Shown: in pieces, positions 3,300 to 39,239 of the stretch | Numbering within the stretch: position 1 is the first letter of the stretch | Layout: every line of letters begins with the position of its first letter | Assembly: GCA_964481235.1 (NCBI GenBank) | Contig: CAYZYH010000003.1 | Span: forward strand, 12,341-76,340 | Direction of reading: 5' to 3' | Origin: an uncultured Candidatus Saccharibacteria bacterium | Lineage (GTDB): Bacteria > Patescibacteriota > Saccharimonadia > CAILAD01 > BJGX01 | Length of the DNA stretch: 64,000 nt | Position numbers and translations under genes: made by a program | Notes under the pieces: generated by a model | What the model saw: the letters and a program-made list of their open reading frames with translations, nothing else | What the model was told of the DNA's origin: nothing | The model's database searches: none

Positions 3300-4275
3300 C
3301 TCACAAAAGCTTAGCCCTAAGCTTTTCACAAAAAATATAGAGCTTGTGCCCAATCGCAAGGGGTTTGGTGAAGGCTTATTAGAGGCTGGCAAAAAAGATA
3401 AAGATGTTGTAGCACTCTGCGCTGATCTAACTGAGTCAACTCAGATGGAAGCGTTTAAGCAAGCTTATCCCGAAAGATTTGTAGAGATTGGTGTAGCCGA
3501 ACAAAATCTAGTAACAGTCGCATCTGGCCTGGCGGCAGTGGGAAAAAAACCCTTCGTTACTAGCTATGCAGGTTTTTCACCCGGAAGAAACTGGGAACAA
3601 ATAAGAACTACAATCTGTCTAAACGACCGCAATGTAAAAGTAATAGGAAGTCACTCTGGAGTTTCGGTTGGTCCAGATGGAGCAACCCATCAGATGCTAG
3701 AAGATATTGCACTTATGCGAGTTTTGCCCAACATGACGGTAGTTGTTCCTGCTGACAGTATAGAAGCTAAGAAGGCTACAATTGCACTTTCTAAAACCAC
3801 TTCGCCAGCTTACTTGAGATTGGCTCGCGAAAAAACGGCGGTAATAACAACCGATAACTCACCTTTTGAAATAGGAAAAGCGCAGATTTTGCAAAATGGA
3901 AAAGATCTCACCATAATTGCTTGTGGACCAGTTCTGTATGAGGCTTTGAAGTCCGCAAACGAACTTGCAAAAAACGCCATTTCTGTAGAAGTAATTAATT
4001 GTTCAACTATTAAGCCGTTAGACACCAAAACAATTGTGACTAGTGCAAAAAAGACACGTAGAGTAATTACCTTAGAAGAAGCTCAAGTGGTAGGCGGAAT
4101 GGGTGGTGTAGTGGCCGAAACCATTGCCGCACAATATCCTGTGCCAGTCATGAGACTGGGTATACAAGATCGTTTTGGTCAATCTGGTACAATAGACCAA
4201 CTTTGGAGAGAATATGGTATAGATACTCCTACTATAGTAAAATTAGCAAAAAAATTCGTTAGAAAGGTAAAGTAA
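3286..4275 (+). CDS. transketolase, C-terminal (pyrimidine-binding) subunit
   Basis: 329 aa; typical split-tkt C-terminal subunit (..GVAEQNLV..GPDGATHQ..); overlaps N-terminal subunit gene. Confidence 0.85.
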   Translation: MSMSNSQKLSPKLFTKNIELVPNRKGFGEGLLEAGKKDKDVVALCADLTESTQMEAFKQAYPERFVEIGVAEQNLVTVASGLAAVGKKPFVTSYAGFSPGRNWEQIRTTICLNDRNVKVIGSHSGVSVGPDGATHQMLEDIALMRVLPNMTVVVPADSIEAKKATIALSKTTSPAYLRLAREKTAVITTDNSPFEIGKAQILQNGKDLTIIACGPVLYEALKSANELAKNAISVEVINCSTIKPLDTKTIVTSAKKTRRVITLEEAQVVGGMGGVVAETIAAQYPVPVMRLGIQDRFGQSGTIDQLWREYGIDTPTIVKLAKKFVRKVK

Positions 4276-5279
4276 TGAAAGATAAACTACAAGTCATGTC
4301 TATAGGTGATGTCGTTACGGACGCTTTTATAGAGTTGCTACCAACTGAGGCCGAAATAGACCAAGATAATAAAAAACATCCATTATTATGCATGACATAT
4401 GGTACTAAAATACCTTTTAAAGACGCAATAATAATAAATGGAGTTGGTAACGCTGCCAACGCTGCCGTAGCCTTTGCTCGCCTCGATATTCGATCGGCTT
4501 TAAGAAGTGACATTGGTGACGATTTGGTAGGGCGCGACATTTTACATGCACTATCTCAAGAAGGTGTTTCTACAGAGTTTATCCAAACCAACAAAGGGTT
4601 TAAGAGTAATTATCATTATGTCCTATGGTATAAAGACGATAGAACAATTTTAATAAAACACGAAGATTATAATTACGAATGGCCTGAGATTAGACCTTAT
4701 CAAAAACCTGAGTGGATATATTTAAGTTCTATTGGTGAAAAGGGCGACGTCGTTCATAGAGGCCTAAGCGACTATTTATTTACTAATCCAGATGTTAAGC
4801 TGGCTTTTCAGCCTGGTACTTTTCAAATTCGTGAAGGGGTAAAAAAACTACACAAGCTATATAGCAAAACGGAGATATTTGCAGCAAACAAAGAAGAGTA
4901 CCAACAAATTCTAGAAAGCGACATTAAAGATGAAAAAATCTTAATAAGTAAGATGCATACTCTAGGCCCTAAGACACTACTACTAACTGACGGACCAAAC
5001 GGGGCCTTTGCATCAGATGGACAAAAAATAGTATTTATGCCTCCCTATCCCGACCCCAAACCACCGGTTGATAGAACTGGCGCCGGCGACTCTTATGCAA
5101 GTACTTTTACGGCAGCAATAATAGAAGGTAAAGATATGGGTGACGCTCTGGCTTGGGCAGGAATCAACTCTTGTAGTGTGGTACAAAAAGTTGGTGCACA
5201 AGCCGGCCTACTAAGCCAAGAAGAAATTCAATCAGAATTGAAAAAAGCTCCCAAAAACTATATAGCAAAAGTGTTTTAG
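4275..5279 (+). CDS. PfkB-family carbohydrate/ribokinase-like kinase
   Basis: C-terminal DRTGAGDSYAS PfkB signature; 334 aa; overlaps tkt stop. Confidence 0.7.
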   Translation: MKDKLQVMSIGDVVTDAFIELLPTEAEIDQDNKKHPLLCMTYGTKIPFKDAIIINGVGNAANAAVAFARLDIRSALRSDIGDDLVGRDILHALSQEGVSTEFIQTNKGFKSNYHYVLWYKDDRTILIKHEDYNYEWPEIRPYQKPEWIYLSSIGEKGDVVHRGLSDYLFTNPDVKLAFQPGTFQIREGVKKLHKLYSKTEIFAANKEEYQQILESDIKDEKILISKMHTLGPKTLLLTDGPNGAFASDGQKIVFMPPYPDPKPPVDRTGAGDSYASTFTAAIIEGKDMGDALAWAGINSCSVVQKVGAQAGLLSQEEIQSELKKAPKNYIAKVF

Positions 5280-5322
5280 GTAAAATGTCTATGGTCAAGT
5301 TGGCTAGCTATAGACTATAATA

Positions 5323-6258
5323 ATGCTTATGTATGACTTAATTATTATAGGTGGTGGTCCGGCTGGTATGACAGCGGGTATTTATGCAGCCCGCAAAAAA
5401 CTCAAAACACTTATACTGACGCGCGATATTGGTGGGCAAGCAGCGTGGAGTAGCGATGTGGAGAACTACTTGGGTTTTACTATGATAACTGGTGCTCACT
5501 TGGTAGAAAAGTTTGAGAATCATGTAGAAAAGTTTAAAGACGTGCTTGAGCTCAGGTTAACTACTAAAGGGGTTAGTGCTGTCAAAAAAAATAAAAACTA
5601 CTTTTCAGTAACAACAGGCGATGGTCATAGCGAACACGCCCGTTCAGTTATTATAGCTGGAGGAAAACTACCAAGACCACTTGGAGTACCTGGTGAACAA
5701 GAATTTCTAAATAGAGGCGTAACCTATTGTGCCTGGTGTGATGGTCCTCTCTTTGCCGACAAAGATGTGGCTATAATTGGCGGTGGTAACTCTGCCCTAG
5801 ATGCTGCTTTAAACATTGGTCGTAGCGTAAAATCTATTGTAATAATTAATATCACACCAGAACTTACTGGCGACCCAATTATGATAGAAAAAGTTACTGA
5901 CTCACCCCATATTCGCATACTAAATAATACTGAAGTTGTTAAAATTAACGGCGAAAAATTCGTGAGTTCTATTACTATAAGGACTCACGGTGACAAATCT
6001 TCTACTGACATACCATTACAGGGCGTTTTTATTGAAGCTGGTAGCTTACCTGCTACAGACTACTTAAAGGGTTTAGTTAAGCTCAATAAGGCTGGTGAAA
6101 TAATCATATACAAAGATAACCAAACCTCGATAGCTGGTTTATTTGCAGCAGGCGATATTACCGATATTAATGAAAAACAAATTATTACTGCTGCCGGTGA
6201 AGGAGCAAAGGCCGCAATTGAAGCCGCACGTTATATAGCAAAGCAAAATGAGATTTAG
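5323..6258 (+). CDS. trxB: thioredoxin-disulfide reductase-like FAD/NAD(P) oxidoreductase
   Basis: IIGGGPAG FAD motif, redox CAWC dithiol, second GGGNSA NAD(P) motif; 311 aa. Confidence 0.7.
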   Translation: MLMYDLIIIGGGPAGMTAGIYAARKKLKTLILTRDIGGQAAWSSDVENYLGFTMITGAHLVEKFENHVEKFKDVLELRLTTKGVSAVKKNKNYFSVTTGDGHSEHARSVIIAGGKLPRPLGVPGEQEFLNRGVTYCAWCDGPLFADKDVAIIGGGNSALDAALNIGRSVKSIVIINITPELTGDPIMIEKVTDSPHIRILNNTEVVKINGEKFVSSITIRTHGDKSSTDIPLQGVFIEAGSLPATDYLKGLVKLNKAGEIIIYKDNQTSIAGLFAAGDITDINEKQIITAAGEGAKAAIEAARYIAKQNEI

Positions 6259-23676: not shown

Positions 23677-23752
23677 TGGTGGCGAGACTCGGAATCGAAC
23701 CGAGGACACGAGGCTCTTCAAGCCACTGCTCTACCAACTGAGCTATCTCGCC
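23677..23752 (-). tRNA. tRNA-Phe(GAA)
   Basis: Reverse complement GGCGAGATAGCTCAGTTGGTAGAGC..; anticodon loop TTGAAGA; one U-U mismatch in the anticodon stem; CCA encoded. Confidence 0.8.
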
Positions 23753-26438: not shown

Positions 26439-27344
26439 ATGTATTCTGAGATAGCCAAAAACAAACGTAATAGTGTTTTTTTAATTTTTTGTTTTTTACT
26501 GGTGATAATAGGATTTTGCTGGGTAATTTCGCTCGCCTACAACGAACCGACAATTTTATACTTTGGCGTAGGATTCTCTACTATATATGCACTAATAAGT
26601 TATTTTACCGCGAGTAGTACAGTGCTAGCTATTTCAAAAGCAAAACAAGTTGAAAAAAAAGACAACCCCAAACTGTACAGAATAGTAGAAAATCTTTGTA
26701 TTACGGCCGGTCTACCTACGCCCAAGATATATATTATTCAAGACTCCGCGCCCAATGCTTTTGCAACTGGTCGAGACCCTGAGCACGCCGCAATATGTGT
26801 TACCTCTGGTCTTATAGATATTATGGACAAGACAGAGCTTGAAGGTGTAATTGCACATGAGCTTAGCCATGTCGGCAACTATGATGTGCGATTTATGACC
26901 CTAGTAGTGGTACTAGTAGGGGTCTTGGTTTTATTGTCTGACTGGTTTATACGCATAACAATATTTTCTGATGATAGAGATAGTGGCGGTAGTAGTATGC
27001 AGGGCATAATGATGTTGGTGAGCTTGGTATTGGCAATACTAGTACCTATTATTGGTATGCTTATGCAACTAGCTTTTTCACGAAAACGTGAATATTTGGC
27101 AGATAGCTCGGCTGCTCTTCTTACTCGCTATCCAGAGGGTTTAGCTAGTGCCTTAGAAAAGATAGAGAGTAGTACTGAACCACTAGAGGCAGCCAATAGA
27201 GCAACATCCAATCTTTACATAGTTAATCCTATTCGGGCAAATGTAAGGGGTAGCACTAAGAGTTGGTTTTCGGGCCTATTTAGTACTCATCCACCGACTG
27301 CTGAGCGCATTAAACGTTTACGCAAAATGGGTACCCATGCTTAA
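26439..27344 (+). CDS. htpX: M48 zinc metalloprotease HtpX homolog
   Basis: HELSHVGNYD HExxH motif between TM helices; 301 aa. Confidence 0.85.
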   Translation: MYSEIAKNKRNSVFLIFCFLLVIIGFCWVISLAYNEPTILYFGVGFSTIYALISYFTASSTVLAISKAKQVEKKDNPKLYRIVENLCITAGLPTPKIYIIQDSAPNAFATGRDPEHAAICVTSGLIDIMDKTELEGVIAHELSHVGNYDVRFMTLVVVLVGVLVLLSDWFIRITIFSDDRDSGGSSMQGIMMLVSLVLAILVPIIGMLMQLAFSRKREYLADSSAALLTRYPEGLASALEKIESSTEPLEAANRATSNLYIVNPIRANVRGSTKSWFSGLFSTHPPTAERIKRLRKMGTHA

Positions 27345-27376
27345 ATGTAATATAATAAGCAAAAGGAGTAATTATT

Positions 27377-30099
<2,723 letters not shown>

Positions 30100-30154
30100 T
30101 ACTTCATGCTTGCAGAATACACCTACCATTGCGCTATAATAGATAACTGCAAAA

Positions 30155-30179
30155 AGGCGCACGGGGGAGCGCCTTTTTG
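30155..30179 (+). terminator. rho-independent terminator after ligA
   Basis: aggcgc-acggggga-gcgcct followed by TTTTT. Confidence 0.6.
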
Positions 30180-30233
30180 CATGTCGGTGCGGTAGGCATC
30201 GAATCAAGAAAGAATTTCGGGTATAATAAAACT

Positions 30234-30524
30234 ATGGGTAAACTTACAAAAGATGAGATAGAATACGTAGCCTCTTTGGCGCGCATAGAGGTTGGTGGCG
30301 ACCAAACAGAGTCTACAGCCTCAGATATAAGTGCGATACTTGGTTTTGTTGACAGTTTACAAGCCATAGATACAGAGGGCGTAGTACCAATTTCTCAAGT
30401 TACTGGCTTGAGCGATGTTTGGCGAGAAGATAAAGTTGTAGACTGCAAAATCAGTAGAGATGATTTACTATCAAACGCTCCTAGGTCTCAAGACGGTTAC
30501 GTAGTTGTAAAGAAAGTTTTGTAA
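30234..30524 (+). CDS. gatC: aspartyl/glutamyl-tRNA amidotransferase subunit C
   Basis: 96 aa from the internal ATG (MGKLTKDEIEYVASLARIE..); position immediately upstream of gatA. Confidence 0.75.
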   Translation: MGKLTKDEIEYVASLARIEVGGDQTESTASDISAILGFVDSLQAIDTEGVVPISQVTGLSDVWREDKVVDCKISRDDLLSNAPRSQDGYVVVKKVL

Positions 30525-31954
30525 TGACCAATTTATCACTTTTAACAATTAGGCAAGCTCACGAGCTTATAGTAAGTAAAAAAGTAAGCGTTATAGATCT
30601 TGTCGAATACTATTTAGATGTTATAAAAAAACGCGAACCACAGGTGCGTGCTGTAATTACCCTATGTGCAGAAGATGCAATCAATAAAGCCAAACTTGTG
30701 GATACTAAAGTTGCTACCGGTAAAAAAATTGGATTACTAGAAGGTATACCATATACGGCTAAAGATATGTTCTCAACTGATGGGGTGCAGACTACAGCCG
30801 CGAGCCAGATATTGAAAGACTATCGCCCACCATACTCTGCAACGGTTATTAACAAACTAGATGAAGCAGGGGCAATTCTAATTGGTAAAACCAATCAAGA
30901 TGAATTTGCCCACGGCGGTAGCACCGAGAACTCTAGTTTTGCCAAGACCACCAACCCCTGGGATACTAAGAAAGTACCAGGGGGCAGTAGTGGAGGTAGT
31001 GCTGCGGCAGTTGCAGCAGACTACTGTGTGTTTAGCTTAGGAACCGACACCGGAGGTTCTATTCGAGAGCCTGCAGCTTTTTGCGGGGTTACAGGCTTAA
31101 AGCCCACATACGGTTTAGTTAGTAGATACGGTGTTATTTCAATGGCTAGTAGCTTTGATTGTATTGGACCAATTACTAGATCTGCCGACGATGCTGAGAT
31201 TGTACTAGAAGCTATTGCTGGTCAAGACCCAATGGACGCCACTACACTAAGCGATTCAGAGAAGTCAGAAGACCCTACAGTAATAAGTAATATAAGAGTT
31301 GGCATTTCAAAAGAATATATCAACCAAGTCGTTGTTAAAGAATTTACTAAGACTCTAGATGTTGAAACAAGTGAGATAAATATGGTAGACAGTGTAATGG
31401 CCTTAAGTGCCTACTATATACTCGTGCCTTCAGAAATCAGCTCTAACCTAGAACGCTACGATGGTATTCGTTATGGACAAGTAGCCAAAGATGCCCTAAA
31501 TATTACCGAGCTTTATTCTAAAACTCGCGCAGAATTTCTGGGCGAAGAGGCTAAACGCCGTATTTATACTGGTACATACGCACTCTCCTCTGGATACTAC
31601 GATGCATATTACAAAAAAGCTATGCAGGTTCGTCGATTAATTTGCAATCAGTTTGATAAGATATTTAGCAACTGCGAGCTTATAGTTCTACCTACTACAT
31701 TGCAACCAGCATTTGAGTTTGGGGCCAAAAGTGATCCAATAGAAATGTACAAGACTGATCTACTGACCGTAACCGCAAATCTTGCTGGCCTACCTGCTAT
31801 TAGTATACCAGCTGGTATTGACGGTGATACTAATATGCCCCTTGGTATCCAGATAATCGGCCGACAGAAGGCCGATAAAACGGTCTTGGCTTTAGCCAAA
31901 GAGTTTCAATCTAAGACGAATTGGCATTTAAAATTGGAGGAGATTAAGTTATGA
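30524..31954 (+). CDS. gatA: glutamyl-tRNA(Gln) amidotransferase subunit A
   Basis: 476 aa; amidase signature GGSSGGSAAAVAA with Ser-cisSer-Lys triad context. Confidence 0.9.
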   Translation: MTNLSLLTIRQAHELIVSKKVSVIDLVEYYLDVIKKREPQVRAVITLCAEDAINKAKLVDTKVATGKKIGLLEGIPYTAKDMFSTDGVQTTAASQILKDYRPPYSATVINKLDEAGAILIGKTNQDEFAHGGSTENSSFAKTTNPWDTKKVPGGSSGGSAAAVAADYCVFSLGTDTGGSIREPAAFCGVTGLKPTYGLVSRYGVISMASSFDCIGPITRSADDAEIVLEAIAGQDPMDATTLSDSEKSEDPTVISNIRVGISKEYINQVVVKEFTKTLDVETSEINMVDSVMALSAYYILVPSEISSNLERYDGIRYGQVAKDALNITELYSKTRAEFLGEEAKRRIYTGTYALSSGYYDAYYKKAMQVRRLICNQFDKIFSNCELIVLPTTLQPAFEFGAKSDPIEMYKTDLLTVTANLAGLPAISIPAGIDGDTNMPLGIQIIGRQKADKTVLALAKEFQSKTNWHLKLEEIKL

Positions 31955-32439
31955 GCTCATCGTTAGTTTCGGTTATTGTGGCGATTATAGTTTTTACCGC
32001 CATTGGTTATTATTTTCTAAAAACTCGCGCCAATAAAACACCCAATAAAAATCGTGATTTTGACGCTCAACAAATAGACCGCTCAGGATCAGAAGACTCA
32101 AGTACTGCAAGTGTCAATAAAGATTTAGTTAAAACAAAATGGGCCGAAATAACTGCTATGCAAAATAATGGAGCAAGCGGGCTGAAAAATGCGCTTTATG
32201 AGGCTGATAAATTATTAGATTACGTGATGATTTCACAGGGCTTTTCTGGAGAAACTATGGGCGACAGACTAAAAAGTGGTGGTGGAGCTTTTACAAATAT
32301 TAATGCTATTTGGGGTGCTCACAAATTGCGCAATCAGTTAGCACACGAGGTTGAGCACGATATCGTACCCAACCAAGTAAAAAATGCCATAGAAACTCTT
32401 GGCAAGGCTATTGAAGAGCTAGGGGTATCTATAGGTTAA
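31951..32439 (+). CDS. hypothetical membrane-anchored protein inserted between gatA and gatB
   Basis: ATGA overlap with gatA stop; ends 4 nt before gatB; N-terminal TM helix; soluble domain with an Rx4H segment (RNQLAH). Confidence 0.6.
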   Translation: MSSSLVSVIVAIIVFTAIGYYFLKTRANKTPNKNRDFDAQQIDRSGSEDSSTASVNKDLVKTKWAEITAMQNNGASGLKNALYEADKLLDYVMISQGFSGETMGDRLKSGGGAFTNINAIWGAHKLRNQLAHEVEHDIVPNQVKNAIETLGKAIEELGVSIG

Positions 32440-32443
32440 CTAC

Positions 32444-33889
32444 ATGGCAAAATATACTCCAACCATTGGTATAGAAATCCACACCCAGCTTGCTACAAAA
32501 AGTAAGATGTTTTGTGCCTGCGACAATCATAGCGTAGAGGCAGAGCCTAACACCAACATTTGTCCAGTTTGCTTGGCACTACCTGGTGTCTTGCCTGTAC
32601 CCAATAAGGGAGCGGTAGAGCTAGCTATTAAGCTATGCAAGGGCCTAAATGCAAAAATTGCCGAAAATACAAGCTTTGATAGAAAAAACTATTTTTATCC
32701 TGACTCGCCCAAGGGTTATCAAATAACCCAAATGGATGAGCCAATTATTCAAAAAGGTTACGTAGAGATTTTGGTGGATGGTGAGTTTAAAAAAATTGGC
32801 ATTCATCGTGCGCATTTAGAGGAAGATGCGGGAAAACTAACACACCCTATAGGCAAAGATTACAGCTTGGTTGATTTTAATAGAGCCGGTACGCCACTTA
32901 TTGAGATAGTTAGTGAACCAGAAATGCATTCGCCAATTGAAGCCAAAAGATACCTTCAAGAGGTTTACGCAATTGCCACTACTCTAGGAGTTACTCATGG
33001 TGACTTACAGCACGGCAATTTTAAGTTTGATTTGAATATTTCAGTAAGTGATAATAATGAGCTGGGCACACGAACTGAACTAAAGAACCTTAATTCTTTT
33101 AGAAATGCTGAGCGCGCTCTGACCTATGAAATCAAGCGACAAATTGAGGTGATAGAATCAGGTGGAAAAGTTGACCAAGAAACACGTGGCTGGGATGACG
33201 GCAAAGGCAAGACCTTTAGCCAACGTGGCAAAGAACACGCACACGATTATCGCTATTTTCCCGAGCCTGATATTCCACCACTTATGCTAAAACCAGAATT
33301 TGTAAGCGAGGTACAGTCGCAAATTAATGACGTAGTTATGCCTATTCAAGTACGCAAAAATCTAGTTAAGCTCAATATTAGTATTGATTCGCAAGATATT
33401 TTTGTAAGTCAAAATACAACCGGCAAAATATTTTTTGAGGCTAGTAAGCTACTAGGCAATAAGCCTGAGATAGACAAAAAAATTATCAATTGGCTTACAG
33501 GTGACTACCAAGCTTGGTTATCTGAAAATAGCGAAGATAACTCAAGGCTTACCGGTGAGAATCTGGCTGAGCTTATTGAGGTGGTCCAAAAAGGCGATAT
33601 ATCATCAAAGACTGCCAAGAGTATTTTTGCAGAAGTAATTACCGGCTCCAGGCCCAAGCAAATCGTAGAGCAACAAGGGCTAGTACAGATTTCCAACAAC
33701 AAAGAGCTAGAAGACATTGTGCGTGATTTGATTTCGAAAAACCCAAATGCCGTATCCGACTACAAAAACGGCAATACAAAGGCGGCTGGCTTCTTTGTGG
33801 GGCAAGTAATGCAGGCTACAAAAGGACAAGCAAACCCTGGCAAAGCTAATGAGCTTGTGCTTAAATTATTAGAAGAGCAATCTGTCTAA
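32444..33889 (+). CDS. gatB: aspartyl/glutamyl-tRNA amidotransferase subunit B
   Basis: 481 aa; typical GatB N-terminus (..IGIEIHTQL..KMFC.C) and C-terminal YqeY-like tail. Confidence 0.9.
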   Translation: MAKYTPTIGIEIHTQLATKSKMFCACDNHSVEAEPNTNICPVCLALPGVLPVPNKGAVELAIKLCKGLNAKIAENTSFDRKNYFYPDSPKGYQITQMDEPIIQKGYVEILVDGEFKKIGIHRAHLEEDAGKLTHPIGKDYSLVDFNRAGTPLIEIVSEPEMHSPIEAKRYLQEVYAIATTLGVTHGDLQHGNFKFDLNISVSDNNELGTRTELKNLNSFRNAERALTYEIKRQIEVIESGGKVDQETRGWDDGKGKTFSQRGKEHAHDYRYFPEPDIPPLMLKPEFVSEVQSQINDVVMPIQVRKNLVKLNISIDSQDIFVSQNTTGKIFFEASKLLGNKPEIDKKIINWLTGDYQAWLSENSEDNSRLTGENLAELIEVVQKGDISSKTAKSIFAEVITGSRPKQIVEQQGLVQISNNKELEDIVRDLISKNPNAVSDYKNGNTKAAGFFVGQVMQATKGQANPGKANELVLKLLEEQSV

Positions 33890-33921
33890 ATTAGTAATCT
33901 TAACCAAGAAAGTCATAAGTA

Positions 33922-34545
33922 ATGTTGTTCGAGTCTGATTTGTTAAGTAGCTTCAATGAAATGTGGCAATCTATTGTGCAGGCTTTGCCACGGATTGGCC
34001 GAGGCGTTGTTTTTGTAATTATTGGTATTTTGGTGGTTAGACTATTAATGAGGTTGTTGTCTAGATTCATTGATTACTTCCATATTTCACTAGGGCTAAA
34101 AGAAATTTTAATAATTTTAGCACGTGGCGGATTGTGGGCTCTACTTGCAATTGGAATATTACAAATACTTGGTCTCACTAATATTGCCTTTGCACTTACT
34201 GGTTTTATTGCCGCGCTTTCTATAGGTATATCCCAGGGATTTACGCAGACAGTTTCAGATTTGGTATCTGGTATTCAACTAGCTAATGATCACGATTTTA
34301 GGGTGGGTGATAAAGTAATTGTGGGTGATAGCGATATGCGTCAAGAAGGCTATATTGTAGAGATGGACACCAAGAAAACTCGACTTATAGACAATAAGGG
34401 CGACCTACATATACTACCCAACTCACTAGTTGACAGAAACGAGTGGACGCTTTTAGAGCGCGATGAAATAACTATCGCACATCTTAAAAGAAGTGATATA
34501 ATAAAGGTAATAAAGCATAAACTTACGAAAGGCAAAAAATCATGA
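33922..34545 (+). CDS. small-conductance mechanosensitive channel (MscS-like) family protein
   Basis: TM helices followed by DFRVGDKVIVGDSDMRQEGYIVEMDTKKTRL, the MscS beta domain. Confidence 0.65.
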   Translation: MLFESDLLSSFNEMWQSIVQALPRIGRGVVFVIIGILVVRLLMRLLSRFIDYFHISLGLKEILIILARGGLWALLAIGILQILGLTNIAFALTGFIAALSIGISQGFTQTVSDLVSGIQLANDHDFRVGDKVIVGDSDMRQEGYIVEMDTKKTRLIDNKGDLHILPNSLVDRNEWTLLERDEITIAHLKRSDIIKVIKHKLTKGKKS

Positions 34546-34811
34546 ATGGCGTAGAAATAGCTCTATTAATTGTTACATCGATTGCACTAATTATCTTAAT
34601 TATATATACAGTAGTATTTCTAGTAATAATGGTTAAAGCCCTCAAACAGATTCAGCTGGCTGCCGAAAAGGTTCAAGAAAGTGCTGACTCAGCTACTGAA
34701 CTTGTAGATGAAGTAAGGCGTACCGTAGTTAATCCGGGTATTATTGCTATGATGATAGAAAAGTACTTACATGGGCGCAGTAAAGCCAAGAAAGCCAAAA
34801 GTGATGAATAG
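34542..34811 (+). CDS. small membrane protein (DUF948-like: TM plus coiled coil)
   Basis: 89 aa; N-terminal TM helix then a charged helix. Confidence 0.45.
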   Translation: MNGVEIALLIVTSIALIILIIYTVVFLVIMVKALKQIQLAAEKVQESADSATELVDEVRRTVVNPGIIAMMIEKYLHGRSKAKKAKSDE

Positions 34812-35277
34812 CGAAGACAACAAAAAAGGTTTTTTTAAAGGCGTAATTATTGGCGGTATAATAGGTGGTGCTACTGCATTGCTATATGCTCCTAAGTCGG
34901 GCAAAGAAACAAGAGAAGATATTAAGCGCAAGCTAGACGATGCCTATACCGAACTTAATCACAAAGCGCAAGAAGCCCAAAAATCTGGAAGTGATCATAC
35001 TAAAGAACTCTTAAAAAAAGCCGAAGATATTAAACGTCAACTAGAACGCCAAAGTAACGAGATAGCTAAAAGTGGTAAAAAAGTAGGTAAAGTAACCGCT
35101 GAAGAAGCCAAGGCCTTAGCCAAAAAAGCTGCAGAACTAACATCTGAACTTGCCAATAGTACAAAAAAAGTTGTTAAACAGAGCCAAAAAGAAGTAAACA
35201 GACTACAAACCAAGGCGGCCAAAGAACGAGCCAAAAAAGACTATTCTAACAATAAGAAACCTGCCGATAAAAAATAG
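34804..35277 (+). CDS. YtxH-like protein
   Basis: GFFKGVIIGGIIGGATALLYAPKSGKETREDIK matches the YtxH glycine-zipper start; start trimmed to the ATG at 34804. Confidence 0.5.
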   Translation: MNSEDNKKGFFKGVIIGGIIGGATALLYAPKSGKETREDIKRKLDDAYTELNHKAQEAQKSGSDHTKELLKKAEDIKRQLERQSNEIAKSGKKVGKVTAEEAKALAKKAAELTSELANSTKKVVKQSQKEVNRLQTKAAKERAKKDYSNNKKPADKK

Positions 35278-35526
35278 ATGTCCAAAACTCCCAAATCACA
35301 CAAGATTGCTAACACGATCGGGCTAGATCACATAAATGAATTGCTGTCCAACCAAAGAAAGCTAACTTGGCTTAACATTAAGGTTGGGATGTTAAGAGGG
35401 TTTGGTGGTGTAATAGGTGCAGCCATTGCAATTTTACTAATTGGTTTTTTGGTTTCAAGGCTCGGTGGGCTACCATTAATTGGTGATTTTATTAGAAGTA
35501 TTGGTGAAGCCGCCAATCTTCAGTAG
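35278..35526 (+). CDS. hypothetical small membrane protein (82 aa)
   Basis: ORF with a C-terminal TM segment. Confidence 0.4.
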   Translation: MSKTPKSHKIANTIGLDHINELLSNQRKLTWLNIKVGMLRGFGGVIGAAIAILLIGFLVSRLGGLPLIGDFIRSIGEAANLQ

Positions 35527-35591
35527 TTAAAACGCAAGTAGTTTAAAACTGATATAATACAACTTAGAAGAATAAGAGGTGAGTTAAAGTT

Positions 35592-38500
35592 GTGAGTGTA
35601 AATGTAGACAATCTTAATCCGGTAATAACCAAAGCCCGTAATTCTAAGGGCTTTGTTGATTTTGTGCATTTACACAATCACACCCACTATAGTTTACTAG
35701 ACGGACTACAAAAAGTTCCTACTCTACTTAACTATGTACAAGAACTAGGCCAGACGGCTTGCGCAATTACTGACCATGGTAGCTTGTCTGGTGCGATAGA
35801 ATTTTATAAGTCGTGCAAAGAAAGAGATATTAAGCCTATAATTGGTATTGAAGCATACATAGCACCTAGAACCTATCTAGATAAAAATAGCGCCGAAGAC
35901 CGCAATCCATTTCACCTCATTTTGTTAGCCCAAAATATTACTGGCTATAAAAACCTTATGAAGCTTAGTACTATAGCAAACCTCGAAGGCTTTTATTACA
36001 AACCTCGTATAGATCACGATCTATTAAAAAAACACAATGAAGGTATAATTTGTCTTTCTGGATGTATTGGTGGCGAGGTAGGGTCCCACCTTAACAACGA
36101 CAACTACAAAGAAGCTAAAAAAGTTGCTCAGATCTATAAAGATATATTTGGTCGCGAAAGATATTATTTAGAAATGCAACCCCACCTAGACTGGGAGCCT
36201 CAAGTGAAGGTTAATAATGGCTTAAAAAAGCTCAGTAAAGAACTCGATTTGCAGCTGGTTGTAACTGGTGATGCTCACTATACCAAGCCCGAAGATCACT
36301 ATCCGCACGATATTTTACTTTGCGTACAAACCGGCAGCACCATTGAAGATCCTAATAGATTTAAACTAGACCAAGACCTCAGTATTCATTCTGGTGCCGA
36401 CATGCTAGAAAAATTTAGTGATCATCCAGAAGCAATCGCTAATACTGTTAAAATTGCACAAATGTGTGATTTAGAAATTGAACTAGGTCGCATACTTATA
36501 CCGCGATTTCCAGATTTGCCCGAAGGTGAAACTGAAAGAAGCTACCTCCGTAAATTGGTATTTAGTGGCGCCGCCAATCGATATACTGATATTCCAAGAG
36601 AGGATTTATTAGAAATTACCGAAGACAAGGTGGTGGAGAAATTGCCAAGCAACGTGTTGGAGCGAATTGAGTATGAGCTAGAGGTGATCGCCGATATGGG
36701 TTATGAGGGTTACATGCTTATAGTTGCAGATCTTATTAACTGGAGTAAAAGCCAAGGTATTATTTGTGGACCAGGACGCGGTAGTGCAGCCGGCAGTATC
36801 ATTGCTTATGCTACCAATATTACCGAGATAGATCCATTAAAATACGATTTGCTATTTGAGAGGTTTCTAAACCCAGACCGTATTAGTATGCCAGATATCG
36901 ATATGGATTACGCTGATGACCGTAGAGAAGAAGTAATAAATTATGCTACACAAAAATACGGACAAGATAGGGTAGCGCAAATTATTACTTTCGGCACAAT
37001 GGCAGCTCGCAACGCCGTAAGAGACACTGGTCGAGTATTAGACATGCCTTATGGCGAGGTAGATGCTATCGCTAAGCTCATACCAGCGCCCGTACAAGGT
37101 CGACATATACCACTCGAAAAATCAATCGTTGATAATCCAGAGCTTAAGGCCGAATATCAAACCAACCCCAAAGCCAAACAAGTTATTGATATTGCCACAA
37201 AACTAGAAGGCACTATTAGAAACGCTGGCACACATGCTGCCGGAGTAGTAATTGCTCCAGAAAACTTGGTAGAATACGTACCTTTGGTGCGGGCTAGTAA
37301 GGGTGGTATAGCAACACAATACTCGATGAATCCGGTTGAAGATTTAGGCTTGCTCAAATTCGACTTTCTTGGTCTATCTAACCTTACTATTATAAAAAAC
37401 ACTCTTAGAATTTTAAAAAAAGTATATGACATCGATCTAAAAGTTACCGATATTCCAATTGACGACACTAAGACTTATGAGCTAATGAGTAGAGGAGATA
37501 CGACCGGAGTTTTTCAGCTAGAATCTGCGGGGATGAAACGTTATTTACGCGAGCTCAAGCCTGACAAATTTGAAGACATTGTAGCTATGGGTGCGCTATA
37601 TAGACCCGGTCCTATGCAATGGATAGAAGACTTTATTAATCGTAAGCACAACCCAGATCTTATTGCTTATGGTCATCCCAAAATGCAGGCTGCTCTGCAA
37701 GAGACTTACGGTATAATTGTTTATCAAGAACAGGTAATGCAAATTGCCAAAGATCTTTGTGGTTTTACAGGGGGTCAAGCCGATACTCTAAGAAAAGGTA
37801 TAGGTAAAAAAATACCAGAAGTCTTGGCCAAAATGAAGCAAGAATTTATAGAGGGAGCTATTGAAACTTCTCAAGTAGATCAAAAATTTGTAGAAGATCT
37901 TTGGAAAAGTTTAGAAGATTTTGCTGCGTATAGTTTTAATAAAAGTCATGCTGCTTGTTATGGGCTTATTGCTGTCCAAACAGCCTACCTCAAAGCTCAT
38001 TATCCGGCCGCATTTATGGCTGCCCTTATGACTAGTGATCATGAAAATTTAGACAGAATCGCTATTGAGGTGTCTGAGTGTCGCAAGATGGGGCTCGAGC
38101 TACTCCCCCCAGATATTAACGAAAGTTTTGCAGAATTTGCGGTTGTTCCGGATACCCAAAATATTAGGTTTGGATTGGGGGCGGTAAAAAATGTTGGCCT
38201 TGGCCCAATAGAGAAAATTTTAGAGGCCAGAAGCGAGGGAGGAAAATTCAAAAACTTAGAAGATTTTTGTAGCAGAGTAGAAGCTACCGTAGTGAATAAA
38301 AAGGTCATGGAATCCCTTATAAAGTGTGGTGCTTTTGATGGTCTTGGTGATAGAGATGTACTTTTAAATAATGTAGAAATTATTACGAGTTATGCATCGC
38401 GAGTGCAGAAAAATGCCTTGAGTGGTCAGGTAGATATTTTTGGTAGTATTGGAATGGATCAAGAAAGTCCACCATTAGCACTTGTATCACCAAAAGACAA

Positions 38501-39239
38501 AACCGACCCTCGCACACACCTTATGTGGGAAAGAGAGTTACTCGGGCTGTTTATTAGCTCTCATCCCCTAGATGACTTTAATAATTATCTCACTTCTAAA
38601 ACTCAAAATATAAAAAACTTTAATAAAAGTGACGACTCCAAACCAATTACCGTAGGGGGTATAGTAATAGGTTTACGACAAATATATACTCGTAATAACG
38701 ACCCTATGGCTTTTGTGCAATTAGAGACAATATATGGCGATGTAGAAGTAATAGTATTTCCGAGAGTTTTTGAAAAAGACAAAGCTATTTGGGCACTAGA
38801 CAATGTTTTGGAGGTCAAAGGCAAGATAAATGCACGCGACAGAGATGGTAACCCCACCGACGACTTAAAGGTTATCGCCAACCAAGCTAAATTAATAAAC
38901 CACCAAACCGCCATGCACTTTCCACCACCCAACCAGACAGTTATGGGAGGCATAGAATCTCAAGTAAAAGCAGTAAATAGTGACAAGACTACAGGTATAA
39001 CCCAGATCATCATTACTCTACAATCAGCTACAGAGAGTGAAAAACTTTTGGCTATTAAGAAAACACTACAAGCCCACCCCGGCTCTACTAGTGTGTTGCT
39101 GCATTTTAGTGGCCAAAATCAAAAACTCAAAATACCTACTGGTGTGAAATGTAATGATGATTTCTTGAATAATCTAAACAATATAGTTGGAAAAGATAGT
39201 ATTAAAATTAAAAGAGCCCCAACAAAAGTTGAGGCTTAG
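35592..39239 (+). CDS. dnaE: DNA polymerase III alpha subunit
   Basis: 1215 aa; N-terminal PHP domain (HLHNHTHYSLLDG), polymerase core, OB fold; GTG start. Confidence 0.95.
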   Translation: MSVNVDNLNPVITKARNSKGFVDFVHLHNHTHYSLLDGLQKVPTLLNYVQELGQTACAITDHGSLSGAIEFYKSCKERDIKPIIGIEAYIAPRTYLDKNSAEDRNPFHLILLAQNITGYKNLMKLSTIANLEGFYYKPRIDHDLLKKHNEGIICLSGCIGGEVGSHLNNDNYKEAKKVAQIYKDIFGRERYYLEMQPHLDWEPQVKVNNGLKKLSKELDLQLVVTGDAHYTKPEDHYPHDILLCVQTGSTIEDPNRFKLDQDLSIHSGADMLEKFSDHPEAIANTVKIAQMCDLEIELGRILIPRFPDLPEGETERSYLRKLVFSGAANRYTDIPREDLLEITEDKVVEKLPSNVLERIEYELEVIADMGYEGYMLIVADLINWSKSQGIICGPGRGSAAGSIIAYATNITEIDPLKYDLLFERFLNPDRISMPDIDMDYADDRREEVINYATQKYGQDRVAQIITFGTMAARNAVRDTGRVLDMPYGEVDAIAKLIPAPVQGRHIPLEKSIVDNPELKAEYQTNPKAKQVIDIATKLEGTIRNAGTHAAGVVIAPENLVEYVPLVRASKGGIATQYSMNPVEDLGLLKFDFLGLSNLTIIKNTLRILKKVYDIDLKVTDIPIDDTKTYELMSRGDTTGVFQLESAGMKRYLRELKPDKFEDIVAMGALYRPGPMQWIEDFINRKHNPDLIAYGHPKMQAALQETYGIIVYQEQVMQIAKDLCGFTGGQADTLRKGIGKKIPEVLAKMKQEFIEGAIETSQVDQKFVEDLWKSLEDFAAYSFNKSHAACYGLIAVQTAYLKAHYPAAFMAALMTSDHENLDRIAIEVSECRKMGLELLPPDINESFAEFAVVPDTQNIRFGLGAVKNVGLGPIEKILEARSEGGKFKNLEDFCSRVEATVVNKKVMESLIKCGAFDGLGDRDVLLNNVEIITSYASRVQKNALSGQVDIFGSIGMDQESPPLALVSPKDKTDPRTHLMWERELLGLFISSHPLDDFNNYLTSKTQNIKNFNKSDDSKPITVGGIVIGLRQIYTRNNDPMAFVQLETIYGDVEVIVFPRVFEKDKAIWALDNVLEVKGKINARDRDGNPTDDLKVIANQAKLINHQTAMHFPPPNQTVMGGIESQVKAVNSDKTTGITQIIITLQSATESEKLLAIKKTLQAHPGSTSVLLHFSGQNQKLKIPTGVKCNDDFLNNLNNIVGKDSIKIKRAPTKVEA

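Follow-up and report, generated by a model that had tools for sequence, protein, structure and literature searches.

The HEPN superfamily is defined by an Rx4-6H motif placed where helix 3 ends or where the loop between helices 3 and 4 starts, a polar residue (N, D or H) directly after the motif arginine, a variable segment inserted between helices 2 and 3, and an acidic residue conserved in helix 2, usually as part of Ex3[KR] (PMC3710099). HEPN domains that bear the motif are metal-independent endoribonucleases (RNases), whose active site is normally formed by two domains placed face to face (PMC3710099; Csx28 preprint). The HEPN fold and membrane-associated bacterial HEPN RNases in general were known before this work, the membrane groups including DUF4145-like proteins with a WP-signature transmembrane (TM) segment, Abi2/Swt1-type proteins with one TM helix, and HEPN-2TM-Zn-ribbon proteins (PMC3710099). 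Separately, Hp0100/QueH of H. pylori stimulates the amidotransferase GatCAB and stabilizes the Asn-transamidosome (PMC8406222). Here we describe a gene, called X, which lies between gatA and gatB on a 64,000-nucleotide stretch of DNA (the window; contig CAYZYH010000003.1 of assembly GCA_964481235.1, positions 12,341 to 76,340) from an uncultured Candidatus Saccharibacteria bacterium. We regard X as representing a new, distinct family within the known HEPN superfamily, in an unusual, strongly conserved housekeeping context.

Gene X and its coupling to gatA and gatB

X occupies positions 31951–32439 of the forward strand of the window, on which all features of the gene described below also lie. 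It encodes 162 amino acids, from an ATG start to a TAA stop, as a predicted membrane-anchored HEPN-domain protein. The ATG (31951–31953) shares bases with the TGA stop codon of gatA (31952–31954) in an ATGA overlap, while the TAA ends at 32439, leaving a spacer of 4 nt before the gatB ATG at 32444. A Shine-Dalgarno (SD) sequence, GGAGGAG, can be read at 31936–31942, 8 nt upstream of the X start and within the last codons of gatA. An initial annotation, made from the letters of the window without database searches, had given the coordinates of the open reading frame (ORF), its length, the ATGA overlap and the 4-nt gap, and all of them are exact.

The codon usage of X is native, with a coding log-likelihood of 0.299 per codon compared to 0.195–0.424 for 21 reference genes of the window; the other frames tested at X gave negative values. 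Against the closest relative, the ratio of nonsynonymous to synonymous substitution rates (dN/dS) is 0.056 for X, 0.067 for gatA, 0.054 for gatB and 0.077 for gatC. In farther relatives, where synonymous sites are saturated, the X protein is still 55–78% identical and diverges at about the rate of GatA and GatC. Since its codon usage is native, its dN/dS is low and its sequence is kept at larger distances, X is a genuine gene under strong constraint and not a chance reading frame. The initial annotation would have discarded the ORF had it been missing from the operon in close relatives with no trace elsewhere, or had it failed codon-usage and conservation tests; the gene is present in relatives and passes both kinds of test.

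The ATGA overlap, the 4-nt gap and the lack of a strong internal terminator-like site are the reasons why we count X as a coupled member of the gat operon. On the forward strand from gatC to gatB, a scan for terminator-like sites found none comparable to the hairpin at 30148–30181, upstream of gatC. Read from the sequence, these features show at most that X shares a transcript with the genes of the gat subunits and is coupled to them in translation. The initial annotation had stated that X must be co-translated with the amidotransferase; co-transcription and translational coupling are supported, but the "must" is overstated.

Protein architecture and HEPN fold

The predicted protein has three parts. 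Residues 2–27 (31954–32031) form an N-terminal TM helix, evident as a helix in the AlphaFold2 (AF2) model and as a hydrophobic segment with a Kyte-Doolittle value of 2.48 over 19 residues from residue 5. This agrees with the single N-terminal TM helix of the initial annotation. No lysine or arginine precedes the hydrophobic helix and five follow it, and the same pattern recurs in most of 115 family representatives, where a hydrophobic 19-residue N-terminal segment has no K/R before it and 3–7 K/R in the next 15 residues. A minority of the 115, mostly from one subgroup, have instead a basic amphipathic helix, often ending in W-P or L-P-F. The anchor of X is thus predicted to be of the N-out/C-in type and not a cleavable signal peptide, and this charge pattern would place the HEPN domain in the cytoplasm. 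The linker that follows (residues 28–56; 32032–32118) is basic and then Ser/Asp-rich, disordered, and variable in length and sequence, with poorly conserved alignment columns; the predicted local distance difference test score (pLDDT) falls below 50 at residues 31–51 in the AF2 model built with the family alignment.

The remaining part, residues 57–160 (32119–32430), is the predicted cytoplasmic HEPN domain, with four helices and an insert. In the AF2 model the helices of the bundle span residues 57–70, 74–95, 117–132 and 140–156, and the insert (residues 96–116) contains a short helix at 103–109. The bundle is modeled with high confidence, with a mean pLDDT of 95–98 in ten-residue blocks over most of its length. 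Structure prediction had been proposed in the initial annotation as a way to follow up the ORF, and the soluble domain came out as a HEPN fold.

The Rx4H motif, R127-N128-Q-L-A-H132 (32329–32346), is located at the C-terminal end of helix 3 and is preceded by A123-H124-K125. The RNQLAH segment had been noticed in the initial annotation, which overlooked that it is the HEPN catalytic signature, a feature that speaks for cleavage or binding of RNA more than for a passive tether. D86 (32206–32208), in the helix 2 block E-A-D-K-L-L-D, is invariant in the 115 members and is the equivalent of the acidic residue that HEPN active sites have in helix 2 (PMC3710099). The other residues invariant in these diverse proteins are W121, H124, R127, N128 and H132, and W64, A81, K87, L88, D90, G100, R106, A123, K125 and L157 are conserved in at least 90% of them. 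Of 149 cluster representatives, 148 carry the block [A/G]-H-K-[LIV]-R-N-x3-H-[E/D], and the remaining one is a fragment. Throughout the alignments, the N-terminus and linker are variable and the C-terminal domain is very strongly conserved. X has all four hallmarks described in PMC3710099, with a helix-2 spacing (D86, K87, D90) that differs from the textbook Ex3[KR]. The initial annotation also pointed to a Gly-rich loop. This loop is real (KSGGGAF, residues 108–114), but its conservation is confined to the close Saccharimonadia subgroup and does not extend to the whole family.

Other comparisons point to the same fold. The best Foldseek matches of the X model are HEPN toxins. Residues 26–135 of the positional counterpart in Southlakia epibionticum, SEML1_0535, were assigned by DPAM to the ECOD group "Nucleotidyltransferase substrate binding subunit/domain" with a probability of 0.99 (Wang et al. 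2023, PMC10633639), and PF05168 (HEPN) belongs to the Pfam clan that bears this ECOD name. Sub-threshold Pfam matches among the members fell preferentially on HEPN families, namely HEPN_Swt1 (11), Hypoth_Ymh (9, best E 1.9e-4), HEPN_RiboL-PSP (7) and HEPN_Cthe2314 (2). According to the model, the soluble domain of X is a HEPN fold with an intact R-N-x3-H motif.

Several candidate relationships were tried and rejected. Searches of PDB sequences with a single sequence and two profiles returned nothing relevant, the matches to AcrE1 (E 1.5), UDP-galactopyranose mutase (0.75) and ribosomal protein bS20 (0.02, over helices 1–2) being spurious. ProtNLM names SEML1_0535 "DUF4145 domain-containing" (PMC10633639), a name that is not based on a hidden Markov model (HMM). 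PF13643 has no match to the window protein at E ≤ 1 or to 10 relatives of the WP/LPF type at E ≤ 10, and it is not among the recurrent weak matches; the TM helix of the window protein also lacks the WP of the DUF4145 WP subgroup. Matches of the family to CD34, ArlX and molybdenum-cofactor models are noise from TM or helical segments.

A large family of Patescibacteria

A word-indexed search returned 163 homologues of X at E ≤ 1e-3, all of about 150–170 residues; the few that are named are each a "hypothetical protein" of Saccharibacteria or Patescibacteria. When 1.84 billion cluster representatives were searched exhaustively with a profile, 2,638 clusters at 50% identity matched with E ≤ 1e-3, of which 1,553 have E ≤ 1e-10, and the best 150 of the 2,638 are all small proteins of 83–228 residues. 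In a scan of one genome per species, X was present in at least 583 species, with depositors' labels that include Saccharibacteria, Saccharimonadia, Nanosyncoccus, Uhrbacteria and Parcubacteria. The X family is large, and essentially all of it belongs to Patescibacteria, or the Candidate Phyla Radiation (CPR). No Pfam or NCBIfam model scores above threshold for the X protein or for sets of 36 and 115 relatives. In two representatives (P0125 and P0137), the C-terminal half of the HEPN domain follows an unrelated N-terminal segment; both are probably chimeras of assembly or gene calling rather than true fusions.

Conservation of the gene neighborhood

The synteny check in relatives suggested by the initial annotation was carried out by mapping GatC, GatA, GatB, LigA, MscS and DnaE onto every fetched locus. 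The loci came from 5 exact look-ups, a genome scan (80), 3 distant representatives and a metagenome scan (80) for which the most distant large subgroup, only about 30–35% identical to the window protein, served as the seed. Linkage was counted over 163 non-redundant loci, with denominators that vary from one linkage to the next, and junctions over 160.

The end of gatA lies within 250 nt upstream of X in 143 of 147 loci, and gatA is found within 1.6 kb upstream in 146 of 147. Downstream, gatB starts within 250 nt in 122/138 loci and within 2 kb in 114/117. As to the other gene pairs, gatC directly precedes gatA in 124 of 128 loci, while ligA is near gatC in 32/119, a MscS-like gene near gatB in 28/107, and dnaE downstream of gatB in 59/97. 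X therefore follows gatA in 97–99% of loci and precedes gatB in 88–97%, whereas the linkages of ligA, MscS and dnaE reach only 26–61%. The linkage of X to the gat genes is as tight as that among the gat genes themselves and far tighter than the surrounding synteny, down to a GatA identity of 38%. It follows from these counts that X is tied to the gat genes as tightly as the subunits are.

The junctions are equally compact. X and gatA share 4 nt (65 loci), 1 nt (44), 8 nt (16) or 11 nt (9), so that they overlap in a total of 134 of 160 loci, and an SD-like motif precedes X in 133. The overlap between X and gatB is 1 or 4 nt in 100 of the 160. X thus remains between gatA and gatB with the persistence of the gatC-gatA pair, and the idea of the initial annotation that X is specific to the lineage and integral to the operon is borne out: it is a Patescibacteria/CPR gene, translationally coupled as far as the sequence indicates.

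In five loci with a gap between X and gatB, the inserts lie between these two genes and none lies between gatA and X. The inserts (L031, L044, L045, L051 and L054, at approximately 4300–5600 in each locus) consist of one to three small genes that, judged by N-terminal sequence only, look unrelated to gat: Nudix-, PNP-oxidase-, HAD-, histidine-phosphatase- and DHFR-like. The X-gatB junction apparently tolerates insertions. Four other loci, L057, L059, L064 (labeled Candidatus Uhrbacteria) and L070 (depositor label Gammaproteobacteria), have the order gatC-gatA-X and show no gatB in the 0.65–4 kb of sequence downstream of X; in L059 X is followed by a Lgt-like and then a thioredoxin-reductase-like gene, and in L064 by a thioredoxin-reductase-like gene. 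In one distant lineage (L087, at 4294–5001, and also L088) a gene for a cyclophilin-type peptidyl-prolyl isomerase (PPIase; PF00160) gives the order gatC-gatA-PPIase-X-gatB, with a STAS-domain gene and a pilin-like gene nearby. The X gene at 3935–4357 of locus L068 (OY969472.1, a complete 1.14-Mb chromosome) is flanked by SSB-like, SpoU-type methyltransferase-like and PLP-dependent synthase-like genes.

The positional counterpart in Southlakia epibionticum

SEML1_0535 of S. epibionticum, a gene of 420 nt, occupies the same operon position and shares 4 nt with gatA and 1 nt with gatB (PMC10633639). It is flagged there as a member of one of the "core" and "Patescibacteria-enriched" families of Meheust et al. 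(PMC10633639), and appears only in the supplementary tables of that study (Wang et al. 2023, Cell). The X family was thus already known as an unnamed "Patescibacteria-enriched" cluster and as an automatically annotated row of a supplementary table. In the transposon-insertion sequencing data, SEML1_0535 has 8 insertions in the input DNA, followed by 5, 3 and 1 at T0, T1 and T2; the normalized reads at these points are 127, 5.9 and 2.8, and the HMM calls are GD/GD/ES (PMC10633639).

The annotation table of Southlakia contains no "asparagine" entry, and "glutamine" occurs only for PrmC, such that AsnRS, GlnRS, and Asn or Gln synthetase are not annotated. For this reason, this organism seems to depend on GatCAB alone for making both amide aminoacyl-tRNAs. 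Southlakia encodes RNase Y (called NE/NE/GD, nearly dispensable), RNase J, RNase III and RNase P. A role for X as replacement of a missing membrane RNase Y or RNase E was rejected, as Southlakia has RNases Y, J and III.

Proposed function and alternatives

X may be a membrane-tethered HEPN RNase or RNA-binding module that is made together with GatCAB and acts on its tRNA substrates, whether docked on the enzyme or not. We offer this reading tentatively, as one that falls somewhat short of being probable. X would be a small bitopic inner-membrane protein, with a TM anchor that leaves few residues outside, some 30 residues of flexible linker and a minimal cytoplasmic HEPN domain. By analogy with other motif-bearing HEPN domains, it would probably pair with another X molecule within the membrane plane, and a single-domain protein confined to that plane might be expected to dimerize readily. 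The pair could form a composite, metal-independent endoribonuclease or RNA-binding site, and would then target RNA on the cytoplasmic side of the membrane. Because X would be produced in fixed proportion with GatCAB, its role would most likely lie in the tRNA-dependent Asn/Gln pathway, where it might for example bind, monitor or cleave tRNA(Asn) or tRNA(Gln), perhaps when docked on GatCAB.

A number of points weigh against this proposal. No curated HEPN sequence model passes its threshold for the X family, and for that reason the superfamily assignment is built on the fold, the geometry of the motif and weak profile matches. Some HEPN-fold proteins are non-catalytic, such as Csx28, described in its preprint as a membrane pore and built on the same TM-plus-HEPN plan. 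SEML1_0535 is equated with X by position, size and fold, and its fitness defect may be polar on the essential gatB, given that PMC10633639 discusses neither SEML1_0535 nor polarity. The loci behind the linkage counts were chosen by similarity to X, so that gat operons lacking X fall outside them. For one homologue only, that of L068, no gat gene was seen within 4 kb. Gene order is generally kept in reduced genomes, and ligA adjoins the gat genes with no known functional link.

A different explanation is that X is an independent housekeeping membrane RNase, acting for example on mRNA or rRNA, which hitch-hikes in the operon through operon compaction and translational coupling in a streamlined genome. 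The long co-directional arrays here mix unrelated functions (ligA, gatCAB, MscS, YtxH, dnaE), and L068 carries an orphan copy of X. However, linkage to the gat genes at 97–99%, against 26–61% for the other neighbors and over GatA identities down to 38%, is difficult to reconcile with hitch-hiking; the linkage also outlasts operon break-up and insertions, and the RNases Y, J and III of Southlakia leave no obvious initiator of decay for X to replace. We regard this explanation as unlikely, though not markedly so.

The possibility raised by the initial annotation was a lineage-specific subunit or tether of GatCAB. In this case X would be a non-catalytic fourth subunit, its HEPN domain serving as a binding module that docks GatCAB or the transamidosome to the membrane without cleaving RNA. 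An operon position and coupling equal to those of the true subunits would fit such a role, as would the precedents of Hp0100 with the H. pylori GatCAB (PMC8406222) and of GatF, which replaces GatC in yeast mitochondria (PMC4027206), and some HEPN domains only bind (PMC3710099). Yet binding-only HEPN domains have typically lost the motif (PMC3710099), while in X the R, N, H, D86 and H124 are invariant in 115 of 115 members, as expected of an active site, and the L068 homologue has no gat gene nearby. A purely structural role is rather unlikely. A bolder version of our proposal, in which X is a fourth transamidosome component that anchors GatCAB to the membrane and binds or cleaves tRNA(Gln) or tRNA(Asn) with its HEPN site, is quite doubtful; such a component might, for example, destroy mis-acylated Glu-tRNA(Gln) or Asp-tRNA(Asn) that has gone unamidated, or tune the pools of these tRNAs.

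X could also be a membrane-permeabilizing, toxin-like or defense protein that arrests growth under stress or infection, in the style of the Csx28 pore or of HepT/Abi. Most prokaryotic HEPN families are toxins or defense components (PMC3710099), Csx28 shares with X an N-terminal TM helix and a cytoplasmic four-helix HEPN-like bundle, and one distant member of the X family has a weak match to Csx24 (E 0.0045). Against this stand the vertical conservation of X, its strong purifying selection, and its place in an essential operon and in a core Patescibacteria family, as well as the reduced fitness, rather than neutrality, upon disruption of SEML1_0535. No antitoxin, MNT or CRISPR neighbor is present at X. 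With tblastn at E ≤ 1, no relative of X was detected in 72,556 plasmids or 50,697 phages, and the defense models of PADLOC gave no match to the window X protein. We consider a toxin or defense role highly unlikely. Two specific assignments of this kind were rejected: a HEPN-MNT (HepT/MntA) toxin-antitoxin pair, as there is no adjacent nucleotidyltransferase antitoxin gene and no plasmid or phage relative and the family is core and vertical; and a Csx28-like protein, as no cas genes lie near X, Csx28 is not among the top structural matches and the motif of X is canonical. Finally, that X is a chance ORF or decaying remnant between gatA and gatB, an idea in favor of which nothing was found, is practically impossible in view of its conservation in thousands of clusters, its dN/dS of 0.056, native codons and conserved SD sequence.

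The gat operon and its surroundings

By their sequences, the genes flanking X are assigned as authentic gatC, gatA and gatB, all on the forward strand. They are located at 30231–30524 (gatC; PF02686, E 4e-19; TIGR00135, 78 bits), 30524–31954 (gatA; TIGR00132, 535 bits; PF01425), whose terminal codons hold the SD sequence of X, and 32444–33889 (gatB; NF004012, 589 bits; PF02934 and PF02637). The mechanically called gatC ORF begins with TTG at 30177 (115 residues). The ATG at 30231, which lies 3' of the hairpin, fits better and is taken as the start because GatC homology and the gene calls of relatives (96–99 residues) agree on it. The hairpin itself, identified in the scan for terminator-like sites, has a perfect 13-bp stem (TGCAAAAAGGCGC...GCGCCTTTTTGCA) with T-runs on both strands, and is located downstream of the ligA stop (30099) and ahead of the gatC start. 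Probably an intrinsic terminator that works in both directions, it would mark the 5' boundary of the gat operon.

The operon is part of a long co-directional block (26439–39239) that is conserved in several Saccharimonadia relatives and contains genes for an M48 peptidase and a polytopic membrane protein, ligA, gatC-gatA-X-gatB, and genes for a MscS-like protein, an 89-residue TM protein, YtxH and DUF5665, followed by dnaE. The polytopic membrane protein (27377–28108) has 243 residues and no Pfam match, and the 89-residue ORF (34542–34811) overlaps the listed YtxH ORF (34771–35277) by 41 nt. Elsewhere in the window there are two tRNA-Phe(GAA) genes, at 23677–23752 on the reverse strand and 62160–62233 on the forward strand, four tRNA-Leu genes within the 64 kb, and a cluster of five tRNA genes at 23.3–24.5 kb; the genome is apparently small and reduced.

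Novelty and significance

HEPN domains with an intact Rx4H motif are otherwise known almost entirely as toxins, defense effectors or eukaryotic RNA-processing enzymes. X is a core, vertically inherited and apparently fitness-critical HEPN protein, and throughout a very large bacterial radiation its gene belongs to an operon that encodes an essential enzyme of translation. The combination of an invariant-motif HEPN family, an N-out/C-in anchor, a position between gatA and gatB across hundreds of species, and a fitness phenotype is described nowhere that we have found, and no paper combining "HEPN" with "gatCAB" was present in the literature searched. Because the genomes of Patescibacteria are minimal, an additional gene conserved within gatCAB is unlikely to be kept without a function.

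If X does act on tRNA or dock GatCAB to the membrane, it would add a new layer of quality control or spatial organization to indirect tRNA aminoacylation, and one "Patescibacteria-enriched" family so far lacking a function would acquire one. Were X a fourth component of the transamidosome, translational fidelity would be coupled to a membrane RNase in organisms where GatCAB is the only route to Asn- and Gln-tRNA. The hypothesis is directly testable, since Southlakia epibionticum is genetically tractable.

Comparison with known systems

Among eukaryotic proteins, the KEN domains of Ire1 and RNase L, and C6orf70, resemble X in placing a HEPN RNase domain at the cytoplasmic face of a membrane with a single TM segment, and their activity depends on dimerization or oligomerization (PMC3710099 and general knowledge). 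They are large, multidomain proteins with kinase and sensor domains, whereas X has essentially no extracytoplasmic part able to sense. Hp0100 and GatF are lineage-specific proteins that join or stimulate the GatCAB machinery, and X is likewise a lineage-specific gene of the gat operon, with an association that is genomic only. No relation of X to Hp0100 or GatF in sequence or fold was detected. Neither of the two is known to be a membrane protein or to contain a HEPN domain.

Csx28, the accessory protein of type VI-B2 CRISPR systems, is closer in architecture: as its preprint describes it, it is small and combines an N-terminal TM helix with a cytoplasmic four-helix HEPN-like domain. It differs in having a divergent motif with the arginine away from the interface, an octameric "face-to-back" pore and a link to CRISPR, while the motif of X is canonical and invariant and its link is to the gat genes. 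The membrane groups of PMC3710099 are also similar to X, with a single N-terminal TM segment and a predicted cytoplasmic, motif-bearing HEPN domain, and the minority of distant X relatives with helices ending in W-P or L-P-F recall the WP signature of the DUF4145-like group. No link of these groups to a gat operon is reported there, and the word "amidotransferase" does not occur in the main text.

The soluble domain of X is most readily compared with the minimal HEPN proteins AF0298 (2hsb) and TTHA0636 (1wwp) and the HepT toxins (5yep, 8xdj and 7ae6), members of the clan CL0291/KNTase_C, which like X are four-helix bundles with an insert between helices 2 and 3. The minimal HEPN proteins and X also share the Rx4H motif at the end of helix 3, the asparagine after the arginine, the acidic residue in helix 2 and a length of about 105 residues. 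Unlike them, X has an additional conserved A-H-K just before the arginine, lacks an MNT or antitoxin partner and is membrane anchored, and it is inherited vertically in a housekeeping operon rather than in a mobile or defense island.

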